Assembly (NCBI RefSeq): GCF_009557235.1
Contig: NZ_CP045650.1
Span: 210,001-242,000, forward strand
Reading direction: 5' to 3'
Origin: Acinetobacter wanghuae
Lineage (GTDB): Bacteria > Pseudomonadota > Gammaproteobacteria > Pseudomonadales > Moraxellaceae
Length of the DNA stretch: 32,000 nucleotides
Numbering within the stretch: the stretch's first letter is position 1; each line of letters begins with the position of its first letter. The notes under the pieces are model-generated. The model did not search any database and was not told the DNA's origin. It was given only the letters and a program-made list of their open reading frames with translations. This document shows, one piece after another, positions 7,776-31,975 of this stretch. A program made the translations under genes and the position numbers.

Positions 7776-8207
7776 ATGAAGAAGATAATAGCTTTCTCTC
7801 TAATGAGTCTTATAAGCTCAGTGGCTTTGGCTACCCCAATTACACTTCAGCATTCTAAGACCAGCTATGTGAACTCAGGGATCTGTTCCGCCGTGGTGGA
7901 TGTGACTATCCATGATTTTCTTGGGACCTATGACAAACTGTATTTAGACCTGGTGGCAAAGGACAAATCCGGCAGAGTGCAAGGGACTTCTGAGAATGTA
8001 ATAACCTACGGCGATATACAAAACCTTCAAGGTAAAGCATTTGGAAATATTTTTCTTGAATCGGAAACGATGTGCGGAGCGGATCGCACCTGGACAGTTC
8101 AGGTTAAGCGCGCCGTCTTGGTCGTAGATGGTAAAAGAGAAGATCTACTGAAGGCCAAGAAAGTTCATATTGATGATTTTCAGCCTATGAGAATAGTAGC
8201 TAAATAA
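7776..8207 (+). CDS. Secreted hypothetical protein (cargo or moron)
   Basis: AAGGAA RBS. Signal peptide MKKIIAFSLMSLISSVALA/TP with no lipobox Cys. Two Cys in the mature part. Confidence 0.65.
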   Translation: MKKIIAFSLMSLISSVALATPITLQHSKTSYVNSGICSAVVDVTIHDFLGTYDKLYLDLVAKDKSGRVQGTSENVITYGDIQNLQGKAFGNIFLESETMCGADRTWTVQVKRAVLVVDGKREDLLKAKKVHIDDFQPMRIVAK

Positions 8208-8278
8208 CAGACTGATTAATAATTCTTGAATACATAGATTAAATTTTACTCATGTCTACCGTTACACAGCCGGAAACT

Positions 8279-8344
8279 GTGCGTTTCTGACATTTTTACC
8301 GTCCGTTTCTGACATTTTTACTGTGCGTTTCATACTTTTTCTAA
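8279..8344 (+). repeat. Three tandem 22-bp direct repeats
   Basis: GTGCGTTTCTGACATTTTTACC / GTCCGTTTCTGACATTTTTACT / GTGCGTTTCATACTTTTTCTAA at 8279, 8301 and 8323. Confidence 0.9.
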
Positions 8345-8403
8345 AAGCGTTACTGAGCAAAATCTAAAATATTTTGCATGAAGCAGTAGTGCTAGATTTG
8401 TTT

Positions 8404-8514
8404 TACCTTGATGTACCTTGATGAAATGGGATTTCCTTAAAATAGAGGTAAATCTTACTGTATATAGCTTTGAAGCTGTTTTGATGGTCTCTCTACTGGT
8501 GGCTTATCAAGGTA
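8404..8514 (+). repeat. TACCTTGATG x2 in tandem, plus one inverted copy
   Basis: Direct copies at 8404-8413 and 8414-8423. ATCAAGGTA, the reverse complement of TACCTTGAT, lies at 8506-8514. Confidence 0.85.
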
Positions 8515-8548
8515 ATTCAATTAAACGCCGTAGAGAATAATTTAAGGC

Positions 8549-8594
8549 CGTTTTGCTGTACGTACTGATACGGATTTTGCTAGACGTACCTAGA
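8549..8594 (+). repeat. Two imperfect tandem units of about 23 bp (..TTTTGCT..ACGTAC..)
   Basis: CGTTTTGCTGTACGTACTGATA followed by CGGATTTTGCTAGACGTACCTAGA. The second unit also contains CTAGAC-GTAC-CTAGAC. Confidence 0.7.
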
Positions 8595-8602
8595 CAGAAT
8601 AG

Positions 8603-8631
8603 GGGGTGTAATCACCCCATTTATCCTTTTT
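8603..8631 (+). terminator. Possible + strand terminator (GC hairpin with a T-rich tail)
   Basis: GGGGTG-TAAT-CACCCC followed by ATTTATCCTTTTT. It is the first such structure downstream of the gene ending at 8207. Confidence 0.4.
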
Positions 8632-8681
8632 GCGAAACAAACCCTATGAAAGAGGTGTTTTTGCCTAATTAGACTGCACCG

Positions 8682-8700
8682 ATCTAAAGCAATCTAAAGC
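8682..8700 (+). repeat. ATCTAAAGC x2 direct repeat
   Basis: ATCTAAAGC-A-ATCTAAAGC. Confidence 0.85.
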
Positions 8701-8873
8701 TGTTTATTCTATTGTCATGATTTCCGTGATAGTTGAATCTGCATGGTTATCTTGACCATTCAGCTACTGGGTTGGTGTTGGCCAGGTGGTATTCCTTTTC
8801 ACTACACTTAAAGTGTGGTTAGCGTTCCAAGAGTTTTCGGATCGGGACCACTTCCCCCACTGGGGGATATGAG

Positions 8874-9263
8874 CAAAATTGCGTTGGTTAATGAACTACG
8901 AAACTTTCGTAGTAGGACGGCGCAAAATTGCGTCCACCTACACGCGCGCGTAGTTGTTCCGAAACCTGAGTTTTCCGTAATAGACCAGCGAAAAATTGCG
9001 TTGGTTAATGAACTACGAAACTTTCGTAGTAGGACGGCGCAAAATTGCGTCCACCTACACGCGCGCGTAGTTGTTCCGAAACCTGAGTTTTCCGTAATAG
9101 ACCAGCGAAAAATTGCGTTGGTTAATGAACTACGAAACTTTCGTAGTAGGACGGCGCAAAATTGCGTCCACCTACACGCGCGCGTAGTTGTTCCGAAACC
9201 TGAGTTTTCCGTAATAGACCAGCGAAAAATTGCGTTGGTTAATGAGCTACGAAACTTTCGTAC
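8874..9263. repeat. Perfect 117-bp tandem array, about 3.3 copies, with a further orphan motif at 9340-9356
   Basis: GCGTTGG recurs at 8881, 8998, 9115 and 9232, a period of exactly 117. Each unit carries the 17-nt palindrome CTACGAAACTTTCGTAG, the 10-nt palindrome ACGCGCGCGT and two copies of AAAATTGCGT. Confidence 0.95.
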
Positions 9264-9280
9264 AGTCACCAGTATGGGTA

Positions 9281-9520
9281 TGGTCAAAATGACCACTCCA
9301 TAAAAGCGATGCTCAAAAGTGAGCAACGGTATTCACTGAGCGAAAAATTGCGTTGAGTGGGTGTGTCCAAATATGGACAGACCTCAAAATTGAGTTTTGC
9401 ACGTGACTATCAGGTACTCACAAAGATAACCCCAACTTTGGGGGGCATCTCTTAACTTTCACCACTGATTAGAGTTTAAAACAATGGTTATCCTCAAATT
9501 TGAGGGCATCCCTTAACATC
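9281..9520. other. Cluster of six short inverted repeats or hairpins with A/T-rich centres, including two related modules of about 30 nt
   Basis: TGGTCA-AAA-TGACCA (9281-9295), GCTCA-AAAG-TGAGC (9311-9324), TGTCCA-AATA-TGGACA (9364-9379), CTCAA-AA-TTGAG (9383-9394), CCCCAA-CT-TTGGGG (9430-9443) and CCTCAAATTTGAGG (9492-9505). The last two are each followed by GCATC(T/C)CTTAAC. Confidence 0.85.
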
Positions 9521-9651
9521 ACTGTTTTCAATAGTTTGGGCTGTATTTTTAAGGTTTTGAGCACCACCCCTTATTACTGGATCTTTTGCTAGTTTCACAG
9601 TCTAACTCTCGATCCAACTAATCAATGATCCGATCACATAGGTCGCCATTT

Positions 9652-10026
9652 TCAAAGAAGATCCAACTGTCCAATCTTATATTGATAAGTTCCCCATTCA
9701 CCTTCACGAGGAACGCGTTCAACGCCAGTTTCAGATTGCCATAGTTGAATTAATGCCTCGCCATTTTCATAATTTGGAATTCCACCACGTGACCATTCGG
9801 AGACAGTTGAAGCGCCACTGACAGGTAAAACAAAGGAGATCTTTTGATGTGTCCATCCGATCTTACTTAAATCCAAGATCATACGATTGAAGTCAGGACG
9901 TTTATAGCTACGGCGTTTGGCGAAAAACTCTTTTACCTTTTTTTGGGTCTTTAAGTTTTTAAATCTTTCAGCTAGTGATTTTCCAAAAATTTCTGTATCT
10001 ACAGAGCCATCATCGGTGAACATCAT
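9652..10026 (-). CDS. Hypothetical phage protein (124 aa), last gene of the early operon
   Basis: Its ATG overlaps the dnaB-like stop (ATGATG/TGA at 10021-10026). No domain recognised. Confidence 0.7.
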   Translation of the reverse strand: MMFTDDGSVDTEIFGKSLAERFKNLKTQKKVKEFFAKRRSYKRPDFNRMILDLSKIGWTHQKISFVLPVSGASTVSEWSRGGIPNYENGEALIQLWQSETGVERVPREGEWGTYQYKIGQLDLL

Positions 10027-11390
10027 ATTGTAATCCCCTGAATTTGATTAAGTGCATCATGATCTAGGTTGGTGAATTGGCAGTACTTCAGTTGAGCATG
10101 CATGTAGGCTGTACCAGCTTCGCCGTGGCGATTCTTTCCAACGATGGCTTCAGCAATGCCTCTGTATTGAGACTCTTTGTTATAGACCTCATCACGGTAT
10201 AAAAAAATAATTTGGTCAGCATCTTGCTCAATCGCGCCTGATTCTCGTAGATCTGACATCATTGGACGTTTGTTAGGACGTTTTTCTAGCTCTCGGTTAA
10301 GCTGAGATAAAAGCACTATGACGCAATCAAACTCCTTAGCCATGGCTTTAAGTTCACCAGTGAAATAGGCAATCTTTAAGTCTTCCCGGGCGAACTGCTT
10401 TGTTGTCTTCATGATCTGCAGGTAGTCGACCAACACGACACCGATAAAACCATACTGATGTTTTACTTTACGAATAGATTCTCGGATATTTGAAATAGAT
10501 GGGCGTGAGGTGTCATTGATCTGCATTGGTACTTTTTGAAGCATTACTACGGCGTTTGTATACGCTGTAAATTCCTCTTTGGGTAGGAGGTGAGGGGAAT
10601 TGCGTACGATTCCAATATCTGCAGGTGCAATCGCGCAACAGAGGCGCATAGCGATTTGCTCCTTCGGCATTTCTCCCGACATGATTAGACTGGGTTTGTT
10701 CTGTACAACTGCTACATTATTCGCAATGAGCTGGAGCATAGTAGTTTTACCCATTGCTGGTCGCGCAGCCACTACCATTAGACAACCAGGTTCAACATCA
10801 CCTAACTTTTTATCCAAGTCATAGATACCAGTTTGAATCCCTTTAATCATAGTTTCGCCAGCAAGTGCGGCTTCAATCTTACGGTGCATCTCAAGAAATG
10901 TGTTGGAGGCGGCATCATGAATATGAAAAAGACTTGTACTGCCTTGCTCAGTACTTATATCTGTAAAAGCTGTCTGAGCATTCAAAACCAAATCACCACG
11001 GCTTGTGGTCAAGCTACGTGCGTTCTGAATTACTTTCAGTGCTTCTGCTTCAACCTTTCGACAGGTTGTGAGGTCCTTTAACTTTTCTGTATAAGGGATC
11101 AAGTTGTAAAAGCTAGAAGGTGCATCACCCAAAATCTGCATGATGTAGCGCTCACCACCAGCCGCGTCGGAGTAGTTGTGCATTTCTAGCCATTGGTTGA
11201 CCAATACAGCATCGTATGGTGAATTCTTTGCATCTAAATCAACAATTGCCTGAAAAATTAATTTATGACGTGTAGCATGAAAATCTTCTTCAGAAATCAG
11301 ATTCTCAACTTGAGCATATGAGTTTGCAACGGTCATTAATGCTGCAAGAACAGCTTGCTCAATTTGTAAGTTATGGATCGTTGTATTCAT
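10023..11390 (-). CDS. dnaB: Replicative DNA helicase, DnaB family
   Basis: Typical DnaB N-terminus NLQIEQAVLAALM, Walker A ARPAMGKTT, and C-terminal RecA-like motifs (SGAIEQDAD, KNRHG). The start was moved to the ATG at 11390, which makes a TAATG overlap with the upstream gene. Confidence 0.9.
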   Translation of the reverse strand: MNTTIHNLQIEQAVLAALMTVANSYAQVENLISEEDFHATRHKLIFQAIVDLDAKNSPYDAVLVNQWLEMHNYSDAAGGERYIMQILGDAPSSFYNLIPYTEKLKDLTTCRKVEAEALKVIQNARSLTTSRGDLVLNAQTAFTDISTEQGSTSLFHIHDAASNTFLEMHRKIEAALAGETMIKGIQTGIYDLDKKLGDVEPGCLMVVAARPAMGKTTMLQLIANNVAVVQNKPSLIMSGEMPKEQIAMRLCCAIAPADIGIVRNSPHLLPKEEFTAYTNAVVMLQKVPMQINDTSRPSISNIRESIRKVKHQYGFIGVVLVDYLQIMKTTKQFAREDLKIAYFTGELKAMAKEFDCVIVLLSQLNRELEKRPNKRPMMSDLRESGAIEQDADQIIFLYRDEVYNKESQYRGIAEAIVGKNRHGEAGTAYMHAQLKYCQFTNLDHDALNQIQGITI

Positions 11391-12208
11391 TAGGGACTTC
11401 CCAAAAGGCTTTTTGGTTTTGTCGGTAAATTGATAAATGGCTGAGTACAAATAGTTTGCTGTTCAATCGGTGCTTGAATGCCATATTCAGGATTCTGCTT
11501 TTTATAACGATCAAACTTATCTATGATCCAAGCCGTGAACTTATGCAGTTTTTTATTTTCAGATAAACCGCTGTTATCGAAATAAGAGTTGAATGCACTT
11601 AATTCAAATTCGAAACTAGGCAAACCTAAGATCATCTCTATATCACTTTCATGACCTGTCATTTTTATCTTAGTTACTAACTGATCTAAACTAGGAATCC
11701 AGTCGTGTTCTTGAGAGAGATTCATTGATAGATTCATTGATAGATTCTGCGACCCGTTTTTGGGTTCATTCAAAGTACCGTTTTTGGGTTGATTACTATC
11801 CAAAATTGGGTTCATTTGCTGCATAGAATCATCCCGCTTTAGGGTTTCTTTAACAGTACCGTTTTTGGGTTTATTATCATCTTTAATAGACCCATTTTTG
11901 GGTTTATTTAAATCGTACCAATTTTGGGTTTGTTCTCTTGAATGGACACCAGCTAACGCCAAGACCCTAACTCTTCCCGTAGGACCCATTCTCTTACCCG
12001 TATCGATTACAAGACCTAGAGAAATCAGCTCGTTCACTACTTTTTTTACTGTCTTCAAATTTAAAACAGTATCAGCTGCTAAGCGTTCCATGCTCGGCCA
12101 TGCTGTATGTTCCTCACCAGCACGATCTGACAAAGAAAGTAGAACAAGACGTTGTGAAGAAGTATTCACTGGAGCAGTCCAAGCCCAGCGCGTTGCATCA
12201 ATGCTCAT
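11390..12208 (-). CDS. Replication initiator, lambda-O-like, with an N-terminal winged HTH and an iteron-encoded linker
   Basis: AGGAGG RBS. The N-terminus RWAW...QRLVLLSLSDRAG...WPSMERLA...VKKVVNELISLGL is the HTH_36/O-like pattern. The central (K/Q)PKNG(T/S) peptide repeats are encoded by DNA iterons. It sits directly upstream of dnaB. Confidence 0.75.
   Translation of the reverse strand: MSIDATRWAWTAPVNTSSQRLVLLSLSDRAGEEHTAWPSMERLAADTVLNLKTVKKVVNELISLGLVIDTGKRMGPTGRVRVLALAGVHSREQTQNWYDLNKPKNGSIKDDNKPKNGTVKETLKRDDSMQQMNPILDSNQPKNGTLNEPKNGSQNLSMNLSMNLSQEHDWIPSLDQLVTKIKMTGHESDIEMILGLPSFEFELSAFNSYFDNSGLSENKKLHKFTAWIIDKFDRYKKQNPEYGIQAPIEQQTICTQPFINLPTKPKSLLGSP
11719..11747. repeat. 12-bp tandem repeat GATTCATTGATA x2.4
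   Basis: Copies at 11719-11730 and 11731-11742, with a partial copy at 11743-11747. It encodes NLSMNLSMNLS in the O-like protein and flanks the iterons. Confidence 0.85.
11754..11940. repeat. Six iterons CC(G/A)(T/A)TTTTGGGTT, the putative phage replication origin inside the O-like gene
   Basis: Copies start at 11754, 11778, 11800, 11869, 11892 and 11928. The extended consensus is GTACCGTTTTTGGGTT(Y)ATT. The layout parallels lambda ori, which lies within gene O. Confidence 0.7.
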
Positions 12209-12897: not shown

Positions 12898-13208
12898 GAT
12901 GAATGCGCTCCTATGTATTTTGGAGCTTCGTCAATCACGACCAAATGATTTGGGTGACGAAGCTGAAAAGGGTTGGTCGGCAGGTAACATAGGGAACCTG
13001 CACACATCATAGATGTGTCCCTCTCCAGCTCCGCCATAACATGCGAACGCATAGAGATTTTACGCACAAAAAAAGCCCGAAGAGCGGACTGTGCGCCTAT
13101 GTTACTTTTGCAGCCGACCAAAGCTGATTCGATGATTTTGCACCGAACAAATTCAATATAGCCGAATAATATTGATTTGAGAAGACATAACCAAAAAATA
13201 AATTTCAT
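12894..13208 (-). CDS. Hypothetical Cys-rich small protein (104 aa) with a hydrophobic N-terminus. The DNA is unusually structured.
   Basis: The ORF exactly bridges its neighbours with ATGA overlaps at both ends (13205-13208 and 12894-12897). Its composition is odd, and it contains nested inverted repeats and a terminator-like hairpin. Confidence 0.5.
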   Translation of the reverse strand: MKFIFWLCLLKSILFGYIEFVRCKIIESALVGCKSNIGAQSALRAFFVRKISMRSHVMAELERDTSMMCAGSLCYLPTNPFQLRHPNHLVVIDEAPKYIGAHSS

Positions 13209-13759
13209 TTGTCTTCCTCATCAAATAATAGGGGCTGTAGCTGGCGTTCAAGCTCTGCCATTTTTTCAGCTGCATGAGGTTTGATTTTTCGACCGAACAA
13301 AACTAAGTTGCGCCCAGCTTCACTAGCGGCATCAGATGCGCGTTCATATTGCAGAACAGCTTTGTTAAATTCAGAAATAAGAGTCAGATTTTGAGATTTG
13401 ATGAAGTCGGACATTTCATCAAAAGCCGCGATATAGCTTTCTTTAAACATCGCGGCTTGTTTGCCAGTGAAGCTCATAATAAGAAAAACGAAACCGTTCT
13501 TGGTCATCTCGTACATTGGTCGGGGCTTCCCCTGAGTATCGATGTATTCCGTGAGCGCAAAATTGCGCCCGCTAAAATCAGCAGAACATTCCAGCTCTCT
13601 CAGTGCACGAAGAACATCACGATGATTTCGTTGAAAGTACTTTGCTACTTTTAACGATGTTGTTGTGGCTTCAGCTTGGTGATCGCTATTGTGAAAGCGA
13701 CTACTGATTTCAATTAGTTGTTCTTGGAATTTGGGAGGGAAATTAAGAGGCTTATTCAT
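13205..13759 (-). CDS. Rha-family phage regulatory protein
   Basis: GGAGG RBS. TSLKVAKYFQRNHRDVLRALREL...GKPRPMYEMTKNGFVFLIMSFTGKQAAMFKESYIAAF matches the Phage_pRha pattern. Confidence 0.8.
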   Translation of the reverse strand: MNKPLNFPPKFQEQLIEISSRFHNSDHQAEATTTSLKVAKYFQRNHRDVLRALRELECSADFSGRNFALTEYIDTQGKPRPMYEMTKNGFVFLIMSFTGKQAAMFKESYIAAFDEMSDFIKSQNLTLISEFNKAVLQYERASDAASEAGRNLVLFGRKIKPHAAEKMAELERQLQPLLFDEEDK

Positions 13760-15429: not shown

Positions 15430-15573
15430 ATGCCTCCCACGGCATTCCCAAAATAGAACCAAGTCAATCGGATTGGGTATCCGACTTTCACCCCGTCGGG
15501 CTAGACTTAGCAAACTGAATATAACAAATAACTACGTTATGGCTAGTAGAATTACTTAACTCATTTCCTAAAC

Positions 15574-31648: not shown

Positions 31649-31724
31649 GGCGTGATAGCTCAGTAGGTAGAGCAACGGATTGAAAATCCGTGTGTCCCCA
31701 GTTCGACCCTGGGTCTCGCCACCA
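31649..31724 (+). tRNA. tRNA-Phe (anticodon GAA), copy 1
   Basis: GGCGTGATAGCTCAGTAGGTAGAGCAACGGATTGAAAATCCGT...GGTCTCGCCACCA. Cloverleaf with anticodon loop UUGAAAA, a TPsiC GTTCGA motif and an encoded CCA. There is one U-U mismatch in the acceptor stem. Confidence 0.9.
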
Positions 31725-31899: not shown

Positions 31900-31975
31900 G
31901 GCGTGATAGCTCAGTAGGTAGAGCAACGGATTGAAAATCCGTGTGTCCCCAGTTCGACCCTGGGTCTCGCCACCA
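31900..31975 (+). tRNA. tRNA-Phe (anticodon GAA), copy 2
   Basis: Its 76 nt are identical to copy 1. Confidence 0.9.

Follow-up and report, generated by a model that had tools for sequence, protein, structure and literature searches.

How did a 117-bp sequence come to be repeated head to tail in gene-free DNA of an Acinetobacter wanghuae prophage, and does the resulting array bind a protein, give rise to an RNA or serve no purpose? We studied these questions in a 32-kb stretch of contig NZ_CP045650.1 (the window). Tandem Repeats Finder (TRF) placed the array at 8875-9262 with a period of 117, 3.3 copies, 99% matches and a score of 769. TRF and the pattern positions exactly reproduced what a sequence-only reading had described, namely 3.3 copies of 117 bp, eight copies of AAAATTGCGT and a single A-to-G change.

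The array and its genomic setting

The array consists of non-coding DNA and lies in a gap between two convergent operons of a tRNA-Ser prophage: the podovirus virion operon and the replication operon of O-like/DnaB type (int-AlpA-Rha-O-DnaB). The features of the gap are as follows.

8208-9651: gene-free gap of 1.44 kb, flanked by the 143-aa (+) and 124-aa (-) genes, which converge on it (ORF list)
8276-8341: three 22-bp direct repeats ACTGTGCGTTTCTGACATTTTT beside AT-rich DNA (TRF and repeat search)
8807-8877: module Z, left flank, TTAAAGTGT...GGATCGGGA...CCCCCACTGGGGGATATGAGCAAAATTG, homologous to L001 6180-6239, L003, L005, L006 and L129
8871-8883: GAGCAAAATTGCG, a form of the GCGCAAAATTGCG-type palindrome
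8875-9262, no strand: tandem array, 3.3 x 117 bp, A-(B-A)x3 (TRF, repeat search and identity check)
8875-8991, 8992-9108, 9109-9225: full units; 9226-9262: partial unit
8875-8911, 8992-9028, 9109-9145: module A, 37 bp, AAAATTGCGTTGGTTAATGAACTACGAAACTTTCGTA
9226-9262: A2, the distal A variant (GAGC)
8912-8991, 9029-9108, 9146-9225: module B, 80 bp, with GGACGGCGCAAAATTGCGTCC and ACGCGCGCGT
8895-8913, 9012-9030, 9129-9147: perfect 19-bp palindrome ACTACGAAACTTTCGTAGT; 9248-9262: its 15-bp remnant
8920-8932, 9037-9049, 9154-9166: iteron-type palindrome GCGCAAAATTGCG
8988-9000, 9105-9117, 9222-9234, 9340-9352: variant GCGAAAAATTGCG of the GCGCAAAATTGCG palindrome
8942-8951, 9059-9068, 9176-9185: GC palindrome ACGCGCGCGT
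9243-9327: module X, right flank, 91-100% identical to L001 and L003-L006, with palindromes TGGTCAAAATGACCA (9281-9295) and TGCTCAAAAGTGAGCA (9310-9325)
9338-9520: modules W' and Y, with the further iteron-type palindromes TGTCCAAATATGGACA (9364-9379), CTCAAAATTGAG (9383-9394), CCCCAACTTTGGGG (9430-9443) and CCTCAAATTTGAGG (9492-9505)

Copies 1-3 of the unit are identical, and the 37-nt partial fourth copy carries one base change, AATGAACTACG to AATGAGCTACG. Each unit is composed of two diverged sub-repeats of 49 and 68 bp, and the sites within the array are spaced by 49/68 bp; by modules it consists of A (37 bp) and B (80 bp), and the order in the window is Z-A-(B-A)x3-X. The limits of module A were drawn by comparison with Z-A-X loci (L129-131), B-A-X loci (L126, L132, L138, L140) and an A-B'-A locus (L144). 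The motif AAAATTGCGT is one half of the palindrome GCGCAAAATTGCG, whose core 12-mer is CGCAAAATTGCG. Exact copies start at 8875, 8924, 8992, 9041, 9109, 9158, 9226 and 9344, and the 32-kb window contains no others; all eight positions had been given correctly before, but the eighth belongs to a flanking module and lies outside the array. GCGTTGG starts at 8881, 8998, 9115 and 9232, CTACGAAACTTTCGTAG at 8896, 9013 and 9130, and ACGCGCGCGT at 8942, 9059 and 9176. A 17-nt palindrome noticed earlier was also present, although its full extent is the 19 nt of ACTACGAAACTTTCGTAGT. CATCYCTTAAC follows two of the four W'/Y palindromes.

The same 143-aa and 124-aa genes are only about 320 bp apart in related prophages (L145, L146, L147, L151), where tandem series of ACTGTGCGTTACACAGC-type repeats occupy the position of the 8276-8341 repeats. 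tRNA-Ser, C4 and int-alpA RNAs were also detected in the genomic context of the array. Since the same virion and replication genes directly adjoin each other in four related contigs, the window element is best read as a single prophage whose left end lies beyond the window. The gap was also considered as the distal end of a tRNA-Ser satellite beside att, and this was rejected, as no repeat of a tRNA-Ser fragment was identified in the window. Decayed genes were rejected as well: a tblastn search of six mosaic regions with O-like, Rha and neighbouring protein queries returned only matches with E>0.3.

A shared mosaic and the route to the array

The unit is part of a larger mosaic of palindromic modules shared with satellites, a context absent from the sequence-only reading. 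We found this mosaic in the window prophage, in P4-like satellites and in 10-kb Rep_3 elements with capsid genes. The satellites encode a TerS-like gene and carry the mosaic at their distal end, adjoining att, while the 10-kb elements encode capsid, portal, HNH and TerL. Elements with unrelated genes share modules X, Y and B-A at 90-100% identity, and the module order is permuted or rearranged from locus to locus. The palindromes have a common N3-5-CA-A-rich-TG-N3-5 build, GGTCAAAATGACC among them, and remain perfectly symmetric although their arms differ; such symmetric arm changes would also suit a hairpin or cruciform function. Relative to its neighbouring genes, the region is oriented differently in the window than in the satellites and Rep_3 elements. 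Wherever the gene context was sufficient for a judgement, the locus was a phage, satellite or plasmid element, and the A-X junction had one match among 185,579 species genomes. Within a single lineage, Rha and the mosaic co-occur in the window and in L143, and relatives with KilA-N/ANT in place of Rha are without the mosaic. DNA searches with the sequence of the gap detected no such array in phage and plasmid records, only short flank matches, which pointed to pHZE33-1-1 and the mosaic. A literature search for the motif strings returned nothing relevant, and this gene-free mosaic of origin-type palindromes, with 90-100% identity in a prophage, P4-like satellites and Rep_3 elements, is apparently undescribed.

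None of the relatives examined carries a tandem repeat of the unit. B-A is single-copy in P4-like satellites and metagenome contigs, where B is 94-97% identical; B is absent (Z-A-X) in three contigs, L129-131; and the related prophage contig L144 has A-B'-A, with a rearranged and shorter B' that is without the (CG)n palindrome. The (CG)n tract at ACGCGCGCGT is length-variable in L138, the unit of which has a 2-bp deletion, and in L139 and L141 B switches to a different module at this tract. The array itself is an ordinary recent duplication, and comparison with these relatives (no B, single B-A or A-B'-A) indicates a recent, strain-specific triplication of a conserved non-coding A+B module. 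Copy number thus varies head to tail as in a minisatellite (VNTR), with three full units plus a partial one in the window and none or a single one elsewhere. The duplication probably arose when two 37-bp A repeats, which originally lay on either side of one B, underwent unequal homologous recombination or replication slippage. The G of the distal A is also found in the distal A copy of L144, indicating that A-to-G is an ancestral feature of the distal A rather than a new mutation within the array.

These comparisons bear on the two explanations previously offered for the identity of the copies. Recent expansion accounts for it, whereas ongoing homogenisation was not borne out, as relatives without B or with a single B-A indicate a simple recent duplication. 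It had also been argued that an array confined to this strain, with no related sequence in homologous prophages, would point to a fortuitous duplication; the array is indeed confined to it, but the unit is conserved in several other mobile elements.

Palindromes of the array in initiator and Rha-like genes

We then compared the palindromes with viral contigs. Close pairs or triplets of the core 12-mer CGCAAAATTGCG were found in 33 of them, and close repeats of GGTCAAAATGACC within ORFs in 63, six of which were tested and identified as replication initiators. Such initiator genes hold 2-6 close repeats of one or the other sequence. Nearly all repeats of both kinds lie within ORFs of 200-370 aa, and for 24-26 specified bases about zero would be expected by chance. 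Gene identities cover the tested ORFs, a subset of the 33 and 63 contigs, all of which fit one of two types: initiators (HTH_36, 'replication initiation O-like' or DnaD-like; L171, L184, L199, L194, L209, L223, L192, L211) and pRha/Rha-like proteins (L158, L160, L163). Three CGCAAAATTGCG sites with 23-bp spacing are located in the HTH_36 genes of L171 and L184, and six GGTCAAAATGACC sites with 21-bp spacing in that of L199; overall the in-gene repeats are spaced by 21-24, 34 or 45 bp, and two such sites lie within Rha-like genes of other phages. The contigs with three sites in an initiator gene are probably not from Acinetobacter. The earlier naming of 'iteron-type sites' thus fits the tested ORFs, in which the palindrome halved in the array recurs as close pairs or triplets in HTH_36 or Rha-like genes. 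The 17-nt palindrome had more than 119 matches in viral contigs, mostly single sites, and most of them encode the conserved Y(Y/H)E(T/S)FVV motif of an unrelated phage protein family; these matches were set aside as irrelevant.

The prophage has its own initiator and Rha genes, located as follows.

11390-12208 (-): O-like replication initiator, HTH_36 (Pfam, PHROGs)
about 11745-11930: seven iterons AACCCAAAAAYGGKWC within the O-like gene
13205-13759 (-): Rha gene
13554-13567: perfect palindrome GCGCAAAATTGCGC inside the Rha gene (repeat search)

Judged by sequence, the seven AACCCAAAAAYGGKWC copies form the prophage's own lambda-type origin, with the same palindrome architecture and other arms (ACCCAAAAATGGGT-type). 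The candidate origin iterons had already been taken to be different and located elsewhere, and this agrees with the iterons in the O-like gene and with the 22-bp repeats at 8276-8341. No initiator gene with GCGCAAAATTGCG iterons was identified in the window or among 8 Acinetobacter O-like genes. Apart from one site inside rha, the 32-kb window holds no further copies of the motif; around GCGCAAAATTGCGC, 21 of 24 bases match 9329-9352.

Iterons of lambda and Stx phages are imperfect inverted repeats with an A-rich centre, e.g. CATCCCTCAAAACGAGGGA, and the minimal O-binding repeat is 19 bp (PMC7466680). The array sites resemble these lambdoid iterons (ori-lambda ITN1-4 and the O-like, HTH_36 and DnaD-like in-gene repeats) in that they are 12-19-bp inverted repeats with an A-rich centre, a build found in GCGCAAAATTGCG and its neighbours. 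Close repeats of the same sequence inside an initiator gene, however, were seen only in other phages. Working origins of this type lie inside the cognate initiator gene, with 3-6 copies about 20-24 bp apart and an AT-rich element. In contrast, the array sites are intergenic, spaced by 49/68 bp rather than about 21-24 bp, have no adjacent AT-rich region, are unlike the phage's own iterons and are set in a 117-bp higher-order repeat.

Candidate functions of the array

Given that the motif is half of the origin-repeat palindrome of other phages, binding of a phage protein is the most likely role of the array, ahead of coding for an RNA or a protein. We tentatively favour the reading that it is an ectopic, amplified platform of initiator- or regulator-binding DNA, acting as a competitor or decoy origin; this inferred function has a somewhat less than even chance of being right. 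The array would act as double-stranded DNA, offering eight sites of one iteron/operator type and three 19-bp dyads, and the absence of hairpin strand asymmetry is consistent with dyads that work at the DNA level. Its ligand would be a dimeric phage DNA-binding protein supplied in trans, the candidates being Rha of the element itself and an O-like initiator encoded by a different phage or satellite. Sequestration, either as a competitor/decoy origin or by titration of a regulator, would be likelier than origin firing, because the sites lie outside any initiator gene, have no adjacent AT-rich unwinding element and are unlike the prophage's own iterons. Amplification from 2-3 sites to eight would raise the dose. 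Titration of a DNA-binding protein, one of the roles proposed earlier, remains the most plausible putative function.

There is a precedent for such a mode in iteron titration and competitor origins (the ori-lambda 'inhibition phenotype', plasmid incompatibility and handcuffing). Plasmid-borne ori-lambda iterons inhibit rep-lambda phages, with O titration proposed as the cause, and replication can be blocked when additional initiator-binding repeats, placed at a distance from the functional origin, sequester the initiator (PMC3349717). The ori-lambda system is laboratory-built and uses cognate lambda iterons plus oop, whereas the array is natural, lies in a prophage and has a non-self initiator or Rha as its putative target. 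If the sites do bind initiators or Rha-like regulators in trans, they may mediate DNA-only competition or hitch-hiking between phages and satellites.

Several observations count against a binding platform. The 49/68-bp spacing differs from the 21-24, 34 or 45 bp of real in-gene repeats; the array occurs in one strain lineage, and its perfect identity would equally fit a neutral, very recent duplication; the mosaic has many different palindrome arms, not all of which could be bound by one protein; and neither the window nor the examined Acinetobacter O genes yielded an initiator with GCGCAAAATTGCG iterons. A broader version of the idea, which we consider unlikely, is that the whole mosaic is a natural 'iteron sponge', a gene-free set of origin palindromes copied from the O-type initiator genes of other phages that soaks up the initiators of helpers or competitors or Rha-type regulators. 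In that case, the carriers would be Acinetobacter satellites, small Rep_3 elements with capsid genes and the window prophage, the triplication would be an adaptive increase in dose against one particular specificity, and the interference or superinfection exclusion between phages would be protein-free and DNA-only.

The main rival to the binding platform, possible but less probable, is a neutral minisatellite: A-B-A is prone to unequal crossing-over or slippage, the triplication is very recent and selectively irrelevant, and the mosaic is relic or selfish DNA, a BIME-like patchwork of recombination scars spreading between mobile elements. The copies are perfectly identical and confined to one strain lineage, the relatives show no B, single B-A or A-B'-A, module order is rearranged with B breaking off at (CG)n in L139/L141, close relatives of the prophage lack the whole mosaic, and the unit has no unusual stability, all of which fit this account. 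It sits less well with the 90-100% identity of X, Y and B-A across elements with unrelated genes, with the perfect symmetry retained by palindromes whose arms differ, and with the coincidence of these palindromes with repeats in the initiator and Rha-like genes of other phages. Moreover, although BIME-2/REP elements likewise combine short palindromic units in extragenic mosaics where genes converge, with tandem expansion of a composite unit, the mosaic is not dispersed over chromosomes (the single match in 185,579 species genomes), is restricted to phage-related mobile elements and was seen with no RAYT transposase.

A true auxiliary origin is quite unlikely. Here the element and the module-bearing satellites would be replicated in trans by the O-type initiator of another phage, a hitch-hiking replication analogous to that of P4 with its ori and crr. 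In P4, crr comprises two direct repeats of roughly 120 bp with initiator sites; these contain the octamer of P4 ori, and the alpha primase binds them. The array resembles it in having direct repeats of about 120 bp, each with several short and here putatively protein-binding repeats, and a satellite context; P4-like Acinetobacter satellites carry the B-A module at their end, with the mosaic next to att, and the palindromes are iteron-type. Unlike crr, the motif occurs only in the mosaic in L126 and in the window; no matching second cluster, and hence no ori-crr pair, was identified in L126. The window element has O/DnaB and no alpha-type primase, and the carriers already bring a replication module of their own, be it O/DnaB, P4-like primase or Rep_3. 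The spacing is also unlike that of real origins, and no AT-rich unwinding region adjoins the array, across which GC is 0.40-0.55.

A packaging or partition signal (cos/pac or centromere) common to a helper phage and its satellites, another role suggested before, is very unlikely. It would suit the presence of the mosaic in a prophage, in satellites bearing a TerS-like gene and in 10-kb elements with capsid, portal, HNH and TerL, as well as the GC-rich tracts and the position at a convergent junction, where the P2 cos site also lies. We found no evidence for it: the mosaic is entirely absent from prophages whose 143-aa gene is identical and whose virion module is homologous, no sequenced phage of the phage collection carries it, no partition gene is nearby, and the repeats in initiator and Rha genes are a better-supported motif match.

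Less likely again is a structured or processed non-coding RNA of repeat units (a ToxI-like antitoxin, a protein sponge or a large phage RNA). The region can form many small hairpins with A-rich loops, the aligned Y-Z block shows some compensatory stem changes, and phages are known to adapt by expanding a pseudo-ToxI repeat. The consensus fold of the Y-Z block, however, consists of local hairpins with few compensatory changes, which in six related sequences leaves DNA versus RNA undecided. No Rfam match supported an RNA even at E<=5, and over 8150-9700 the best Rfam 15 hit had E=0.96, with every match far below the gathering score. The earlier proposal of a processed repeat RNA is further weakened by a search that found no promoter-like site on either strand of the array, by G.T and A.C mismatches that are symmetric (13 versus 16), by fold z-scores of -1.0 to -1.2 for the unit, and by an orientation to neighbouring genes that is not constant between the window and the satellites or Rep_3 elements. 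ToxI-like type III systems have tandem repeats of about 36 nt immediately before a toxN-like endoribonuclease gene with which they are co-transcribed, whereas the unit here is 117 bp with no toxin-like gene adjacent; PADLOC gave no matches for the 143-aa and 124-aa neighbours that converge on the gap. CRISPR arrays have short repeats and unique spacers, whereas this array is a whole 117-bp unit head to tail without unique spacers. The array is non-coding, and its previous description as none of a CRISPR, DGR or ToxI array was supported. A nut-like boxB-boxA (hairpin plus CATCTCTTAAC) was rejected because its orientation to transcription is not conserved and strand asymmetry is absent. Xer/dif, IHF, LacI/PurR-type operators and protelomerase telomeres, compared by eye with consensus sequences, did not fit.

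The chance of a protein-coding repeat is negligible: ORFs of 162 aa (8815-9303, +) and 172 aa (8808-9326, -) stay open through the array because 117 is 39 codons, and gene callers have annotated similar ORFs in other assemblies, but both strands are open, as expected for a period divisible by 3, Pfam yields sub-threshold noise only, the homologous 'proteins' are translations of the same DNA with different flanks, and the unit has a 2-bp deletion in L138, with a rearranged, shorter B' in L144. In practice, gene callers make spurious 'proteins' from the array, and short-read assemblies of the prophage break at it, as the draft assembly GCA_009601085.1 does within the array.

Structure, neighbourhood and origin of the array

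Tandem Repeats Finder placed a 117-bp period with 3.3 copies at 8875-9262 (99% matches, score 769), and comparison of the copies showed that the three full ones were identical and that the 37-nt fourth copy differed at one base, which confirmed the near-perfect array described in the sequence-only reading. The positions reported for GCGTTGG, CTACGAAACTTTCGTAG and ACGCGCGCGT were also correct, as were all eight coordinates of AAAATTGCGT, which did not occur again in the 32-kb window. However, the eighth of these sites (9344) lies outside the array, and the palindrome described as 17 nt long measures 19 nt.

The array is located in a gene-free gap of 1,444 bp (8208-9651). On the left, podovirus virion genes, including PHROG head and internal-virion proteins, lie on the + strand; one virion protein shares 81% identity with an Acinetobacter phage 4316 protein. 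After them come two small + strand genes, of which the last, a 143-aa gene, ends at 8207. On the right, every gene is on the - strand.

8875-9262, no strand, 117-bp tandem array (Tandem Repeats Finder)
First right of the gap, - strand, 124-aa gene
After the 124-aa gene, - strand, DnaB helicase
11390-12208, - strand, HTH_36 'replication initiation O-like' protein
Between the O-like gene and Rha, - strand, two small genes overlapping C4 antisense RNA
13205-13759, - strand, Rha
Right of Rha, - strand, AlpA
Right of AlpA, - strand, 444-aa gene
Between the 444-aa gene and the integrase, - strand, int-alpA RNA
Between int-alpA RNA and tRNA-Ser, - strand, tyrosine integrase
End of the right-hand series, - strand, tRNA-Ser

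The C4 antisense RNA (12950-13041, -, 58 bits), which overlaps the small gene beside Rha, and the int-alpA motif (15443-15511, -, 43.5 bits), which neighbours the integrase, both scored above their Rfam gathering thresholds. A pair of tRNA-Phe(GAA) genes, each scoring 65.8 bits in Rfam, lies at 31649-31724 and 31900-31975, 251 bp apart. In four related contigs, found by exact-protein look-ups, the same 143-aa and 124-aa genes converge across only ~320 bp of 22-bp direct repeats and AT-rich DNA. On this basis the window's element is best read as probably one prophage, whose convergent junction would have gained ~1.1 kb of non-coding DNA and whose left end would lie beyond the window. The draft assembly GCA_009601085.1 carries the identical sequence, split into two contigs within the array.

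Relatives of the array were sought among contigs with spurious ORFs, matched in the protein database by the translated spurious array ORF. The unit consists of module A (37 bp) and module B (80 bp), and the window's order is Z-A-(B-A)x3-X, Z and X being flanking modules. A single B-A-X, at 94-97% identity, was found in several metagenome contigs and in one P4-like satellite, which has int, AlpA, primase and TerS-like genes and the att repeat TTCTGTATTGGAAAGTAATTT; three contigs had Z-A-X without B. Contig L144, which has the same 124-aa gene as the window, carries Z-A-B'-A-X, with B' shorter than B and with the G variant of the window's distal A in its own distal A. A metagenome scan returned four single copies of the unit and no tandem array; 185,579 species genomes held no tandem array and one divergent copy, in A. 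bouvetii; the viral contigs gave no match to a B 20-mer. These results identify the array as a recent, lineage-specific A+B duplication, probably mediated by the flanking A repeats; its near-identical copies had already implied a recent expansion. Whether the unit is unique thus has a divided answer: the array is lineage-specific, but the unit recurs elsewhere as a single copy. Within the unit, two sub-repeats of 49 and 68 bp record an older duplication, so the locus has been duplicated repeatedly.

Palindromes of the gap, initiator genes and rha genes

Perfect palindromes that share the build N3-5-CA-(A-rich, 2-6 nt)-TG-N3-5 crowd the gap.

TGGTCAAAATGACCA, gap palindrome
TGCTCAAAAGTGAGCA, gap palindrome
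TGTCCAAATATGGACA, gap palindrome
CTCAAAATTGAG, gap palindrome
CCCCAACTTTGGGG, gap palindrome
CCTCAAATTTGAGG, gap palindrome
GCGCAAAATTGCG, array palindrome, whose right half is AAAATTGCGT

Lambda-type origin iterons have this build. Those of lambda and Stx, for example CATCCCTCAAAACGAGGGA, are inverted repeats with imperfect symmetry, and the minimal repeat for O binding is given as 19 bp (PMC7466680). The phage's own candidate iterons differ from the array motif, as had been claimed: the O-like gene contains seven AACCCAAAAAYGGKWC repeats (~11745-11930, -), a lambda-type origin of the classic in-gene form. The in-gene repeats of related prophages (L145-147) are of the CCCAAAAACGG type, like those of the window's O-like gene. 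At 8276-8341, next to AT-rich DNA and immediately following the 143-aa gene, are three direct repeats of 22 bp, ACTGTGCGTTTCTGACATTTTT, which make up a second iteron-like set, separate from that of the O gene; at the same place, related prophages carry ACTGTGCGTTACACAGC-type repeats in tandem (L145 6530-6630).

Pairs of CGCAAAATTGCG spaced by 5-35 nt were found in 33 viral contigs and pairs of GGTCAAAATGACC in 63, nearly all of them within ORFs of 200-370 aa. The ORFs tested were either initiator-type (HTH_36, 'replication initiation O-like' or DnaD-like) or pRha/Rha-like. Among the former, L171 and L184 have three sites 23 bp apart, L199 has six sites 21 bp apart, and the other five have two to five each. 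In the Rha-like ORFs L158, L160 and L163 the two sites are separated by 34 or 41 bp and fall in differing reading frames; such pairs, seen in three or more of the viral contigs tested, suggest a cis element inside rha genes. The window's Rha gene has one perfect GCGCAAAATTGCGC palindrome just after the HRDVLRA helix, where L158 and L160 also have their sites, and the 24 bases around it (13544-13567) match 9329-9352 at 21/24. Relatives without the mosaic described below carry KilA-N/ANT where the window has Rha. In two DnaD-like O-like genes of Obolenskvirus (L252, L253), palindromes TACGTTCTAACGTA and TACGTTGAAACGTA lie 22 bp apart (gene positions 455-490) and share TACG/CGTA arm ends with the array's ACTACGAAACTTTCGTAGT dyad. 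Altogether, our comparisons show the array to be an ectopic cluster of eight sites, of an iteron/operator type used by O-like initiator and Rha-like genes, produced by a recent A+B triplication.

A mosaic shared with satellites and Rep_3 elements

The array belongs to a mosaic that other elements share: its flanking modules Z, X, W and Y, 79-100% identical but rearranged in order, are found again at loci of three kinds. The first is A. schindleri plasmid pHZE33-1-1, where the mosaic lies between a Rep_3 replication module and a capsid block (major capsid, protease, portal, HNH and TerL genes), together with four ~10-kb viral contigs with Rep_3-type 22-bp iterons. The plasmid locus (L001, 38.6-50.7 kb) has Rep_3/RepM with four perfect 22-bp iterons, a prohead protease and a head-tail connector gene, and shares iterons and mosaic with the four contigs (L003-L006); this module looks like a plasmid-borne, capsid-forming satellite-like element in Acinetobacter. 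The second is the distal ends of integrated satellites, with att coming next; beyond att, L137 and L138 run straight into a second island's integrase. The third is a 2-kb gene-free stretch of A. baumannii VB1190 that ends at a tRNA-end fragment. The island ends finish in a tRNA 3'-end fragment (L137 3320-3342, L138 2380-2400, L002 5575-5592), and the long non-coding mosaic is always found just inside this att fragment; in L137 and L138 the fragment adjoins the second island's integrase, giving tandem island arrays.

Mosaic regions are ~0.6 to 2.1 kb long, with no detectable coding remnants and no Rfam match; nothing for them came from literature searches with sequence strings or from the Rfam, Pfam, PHROG and PADLOC libraries. 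A gene-free, multi-specificity set of origin-type palindromes that recurs in a prophage, in satellites and in small Rep_3 elements carrying capsid genes seems to be undescribed. A (CG)n tract followed by AGGGA recurs in satellites (L139 2650-2700, L141 2560-2610, L126 10225-10250, L138 1895-1925); in L139 and L141 the start of B is fused, at B's own (CG)n tract, to this other module, and the tract thus appears to serve as a recombination joint. There are also dozens of duplications with a 10-bp period, each of two tandem copies (window 8404-8423 with 8505-8513, and 8552-8601; L002 3690-4800; L137 4230-4700; L138 1050-1370). Their word, for example GTCCAAGTACGTCCAAG or TCAGGTTTTGTCAGGTT, is constant within a pair and varies between pairs, in the forms W-TAC-W and W-TTT-W, and a single complementary word often lies ~90-130 nt away.

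Possible roles of the array

With slightly less than even confidence, we propose that the array functions as double-stranded DNA: a dimeric phage protein provided in trans would bind to it and probably be sequestered, the array being a competitor or decoy origin or titrating a regulator. The sites are unlike the phage's own iterons, lie outside any initiator gene, have an atypical 49/68-bp spacing and lack an AT-rich neighbour, all of which points from a working origin to sequestration. The array is closest in kind to known iteron clusters and to iteron titration. The proposed sequestration has a laboratory precedent: rep-lambda phages are blocked by ori-lambda iterons carried on a plasmid, with O titration as the proposed cause (PMC3349717).

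Neutral duplication in functionless mosaic DNA is a somewhat less likely account of these sites. Tandem duplication of a non-coding module is in itself an ordinary event. A hitch-hiking origin is improbable, and a packaging or partition signal, an RNA or a coding repeat is less probable still. A protein-coding repeat was rejected: both strands are open merely because 117 is divisible by 3, and the array ORFs gave only noise-level Pfam matches. A 2-bp deletion in the L138 unit and the rearranged, shorter B' of L144 also count against coding. For the processed repeat RNA suggested earlier, nothing was found: no promoter-like site was detected in the array, on either strand the folding energy of the unit departs from that of shuffled controls by no more than ~1 standard deviation, and the satellites and Rep_3 elements carry the region in a different orientation, relative to the operons next to it, from that in the window. 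The 92 distinct hairpins of 12 mosaic regions had G.T mismatches as often as A.C mismatches (13 versus 16). Local hairpins of the Y-Z block show a few compensatory changes, which would be equally expected from dyad-symmetric protein sites or cruciforms.
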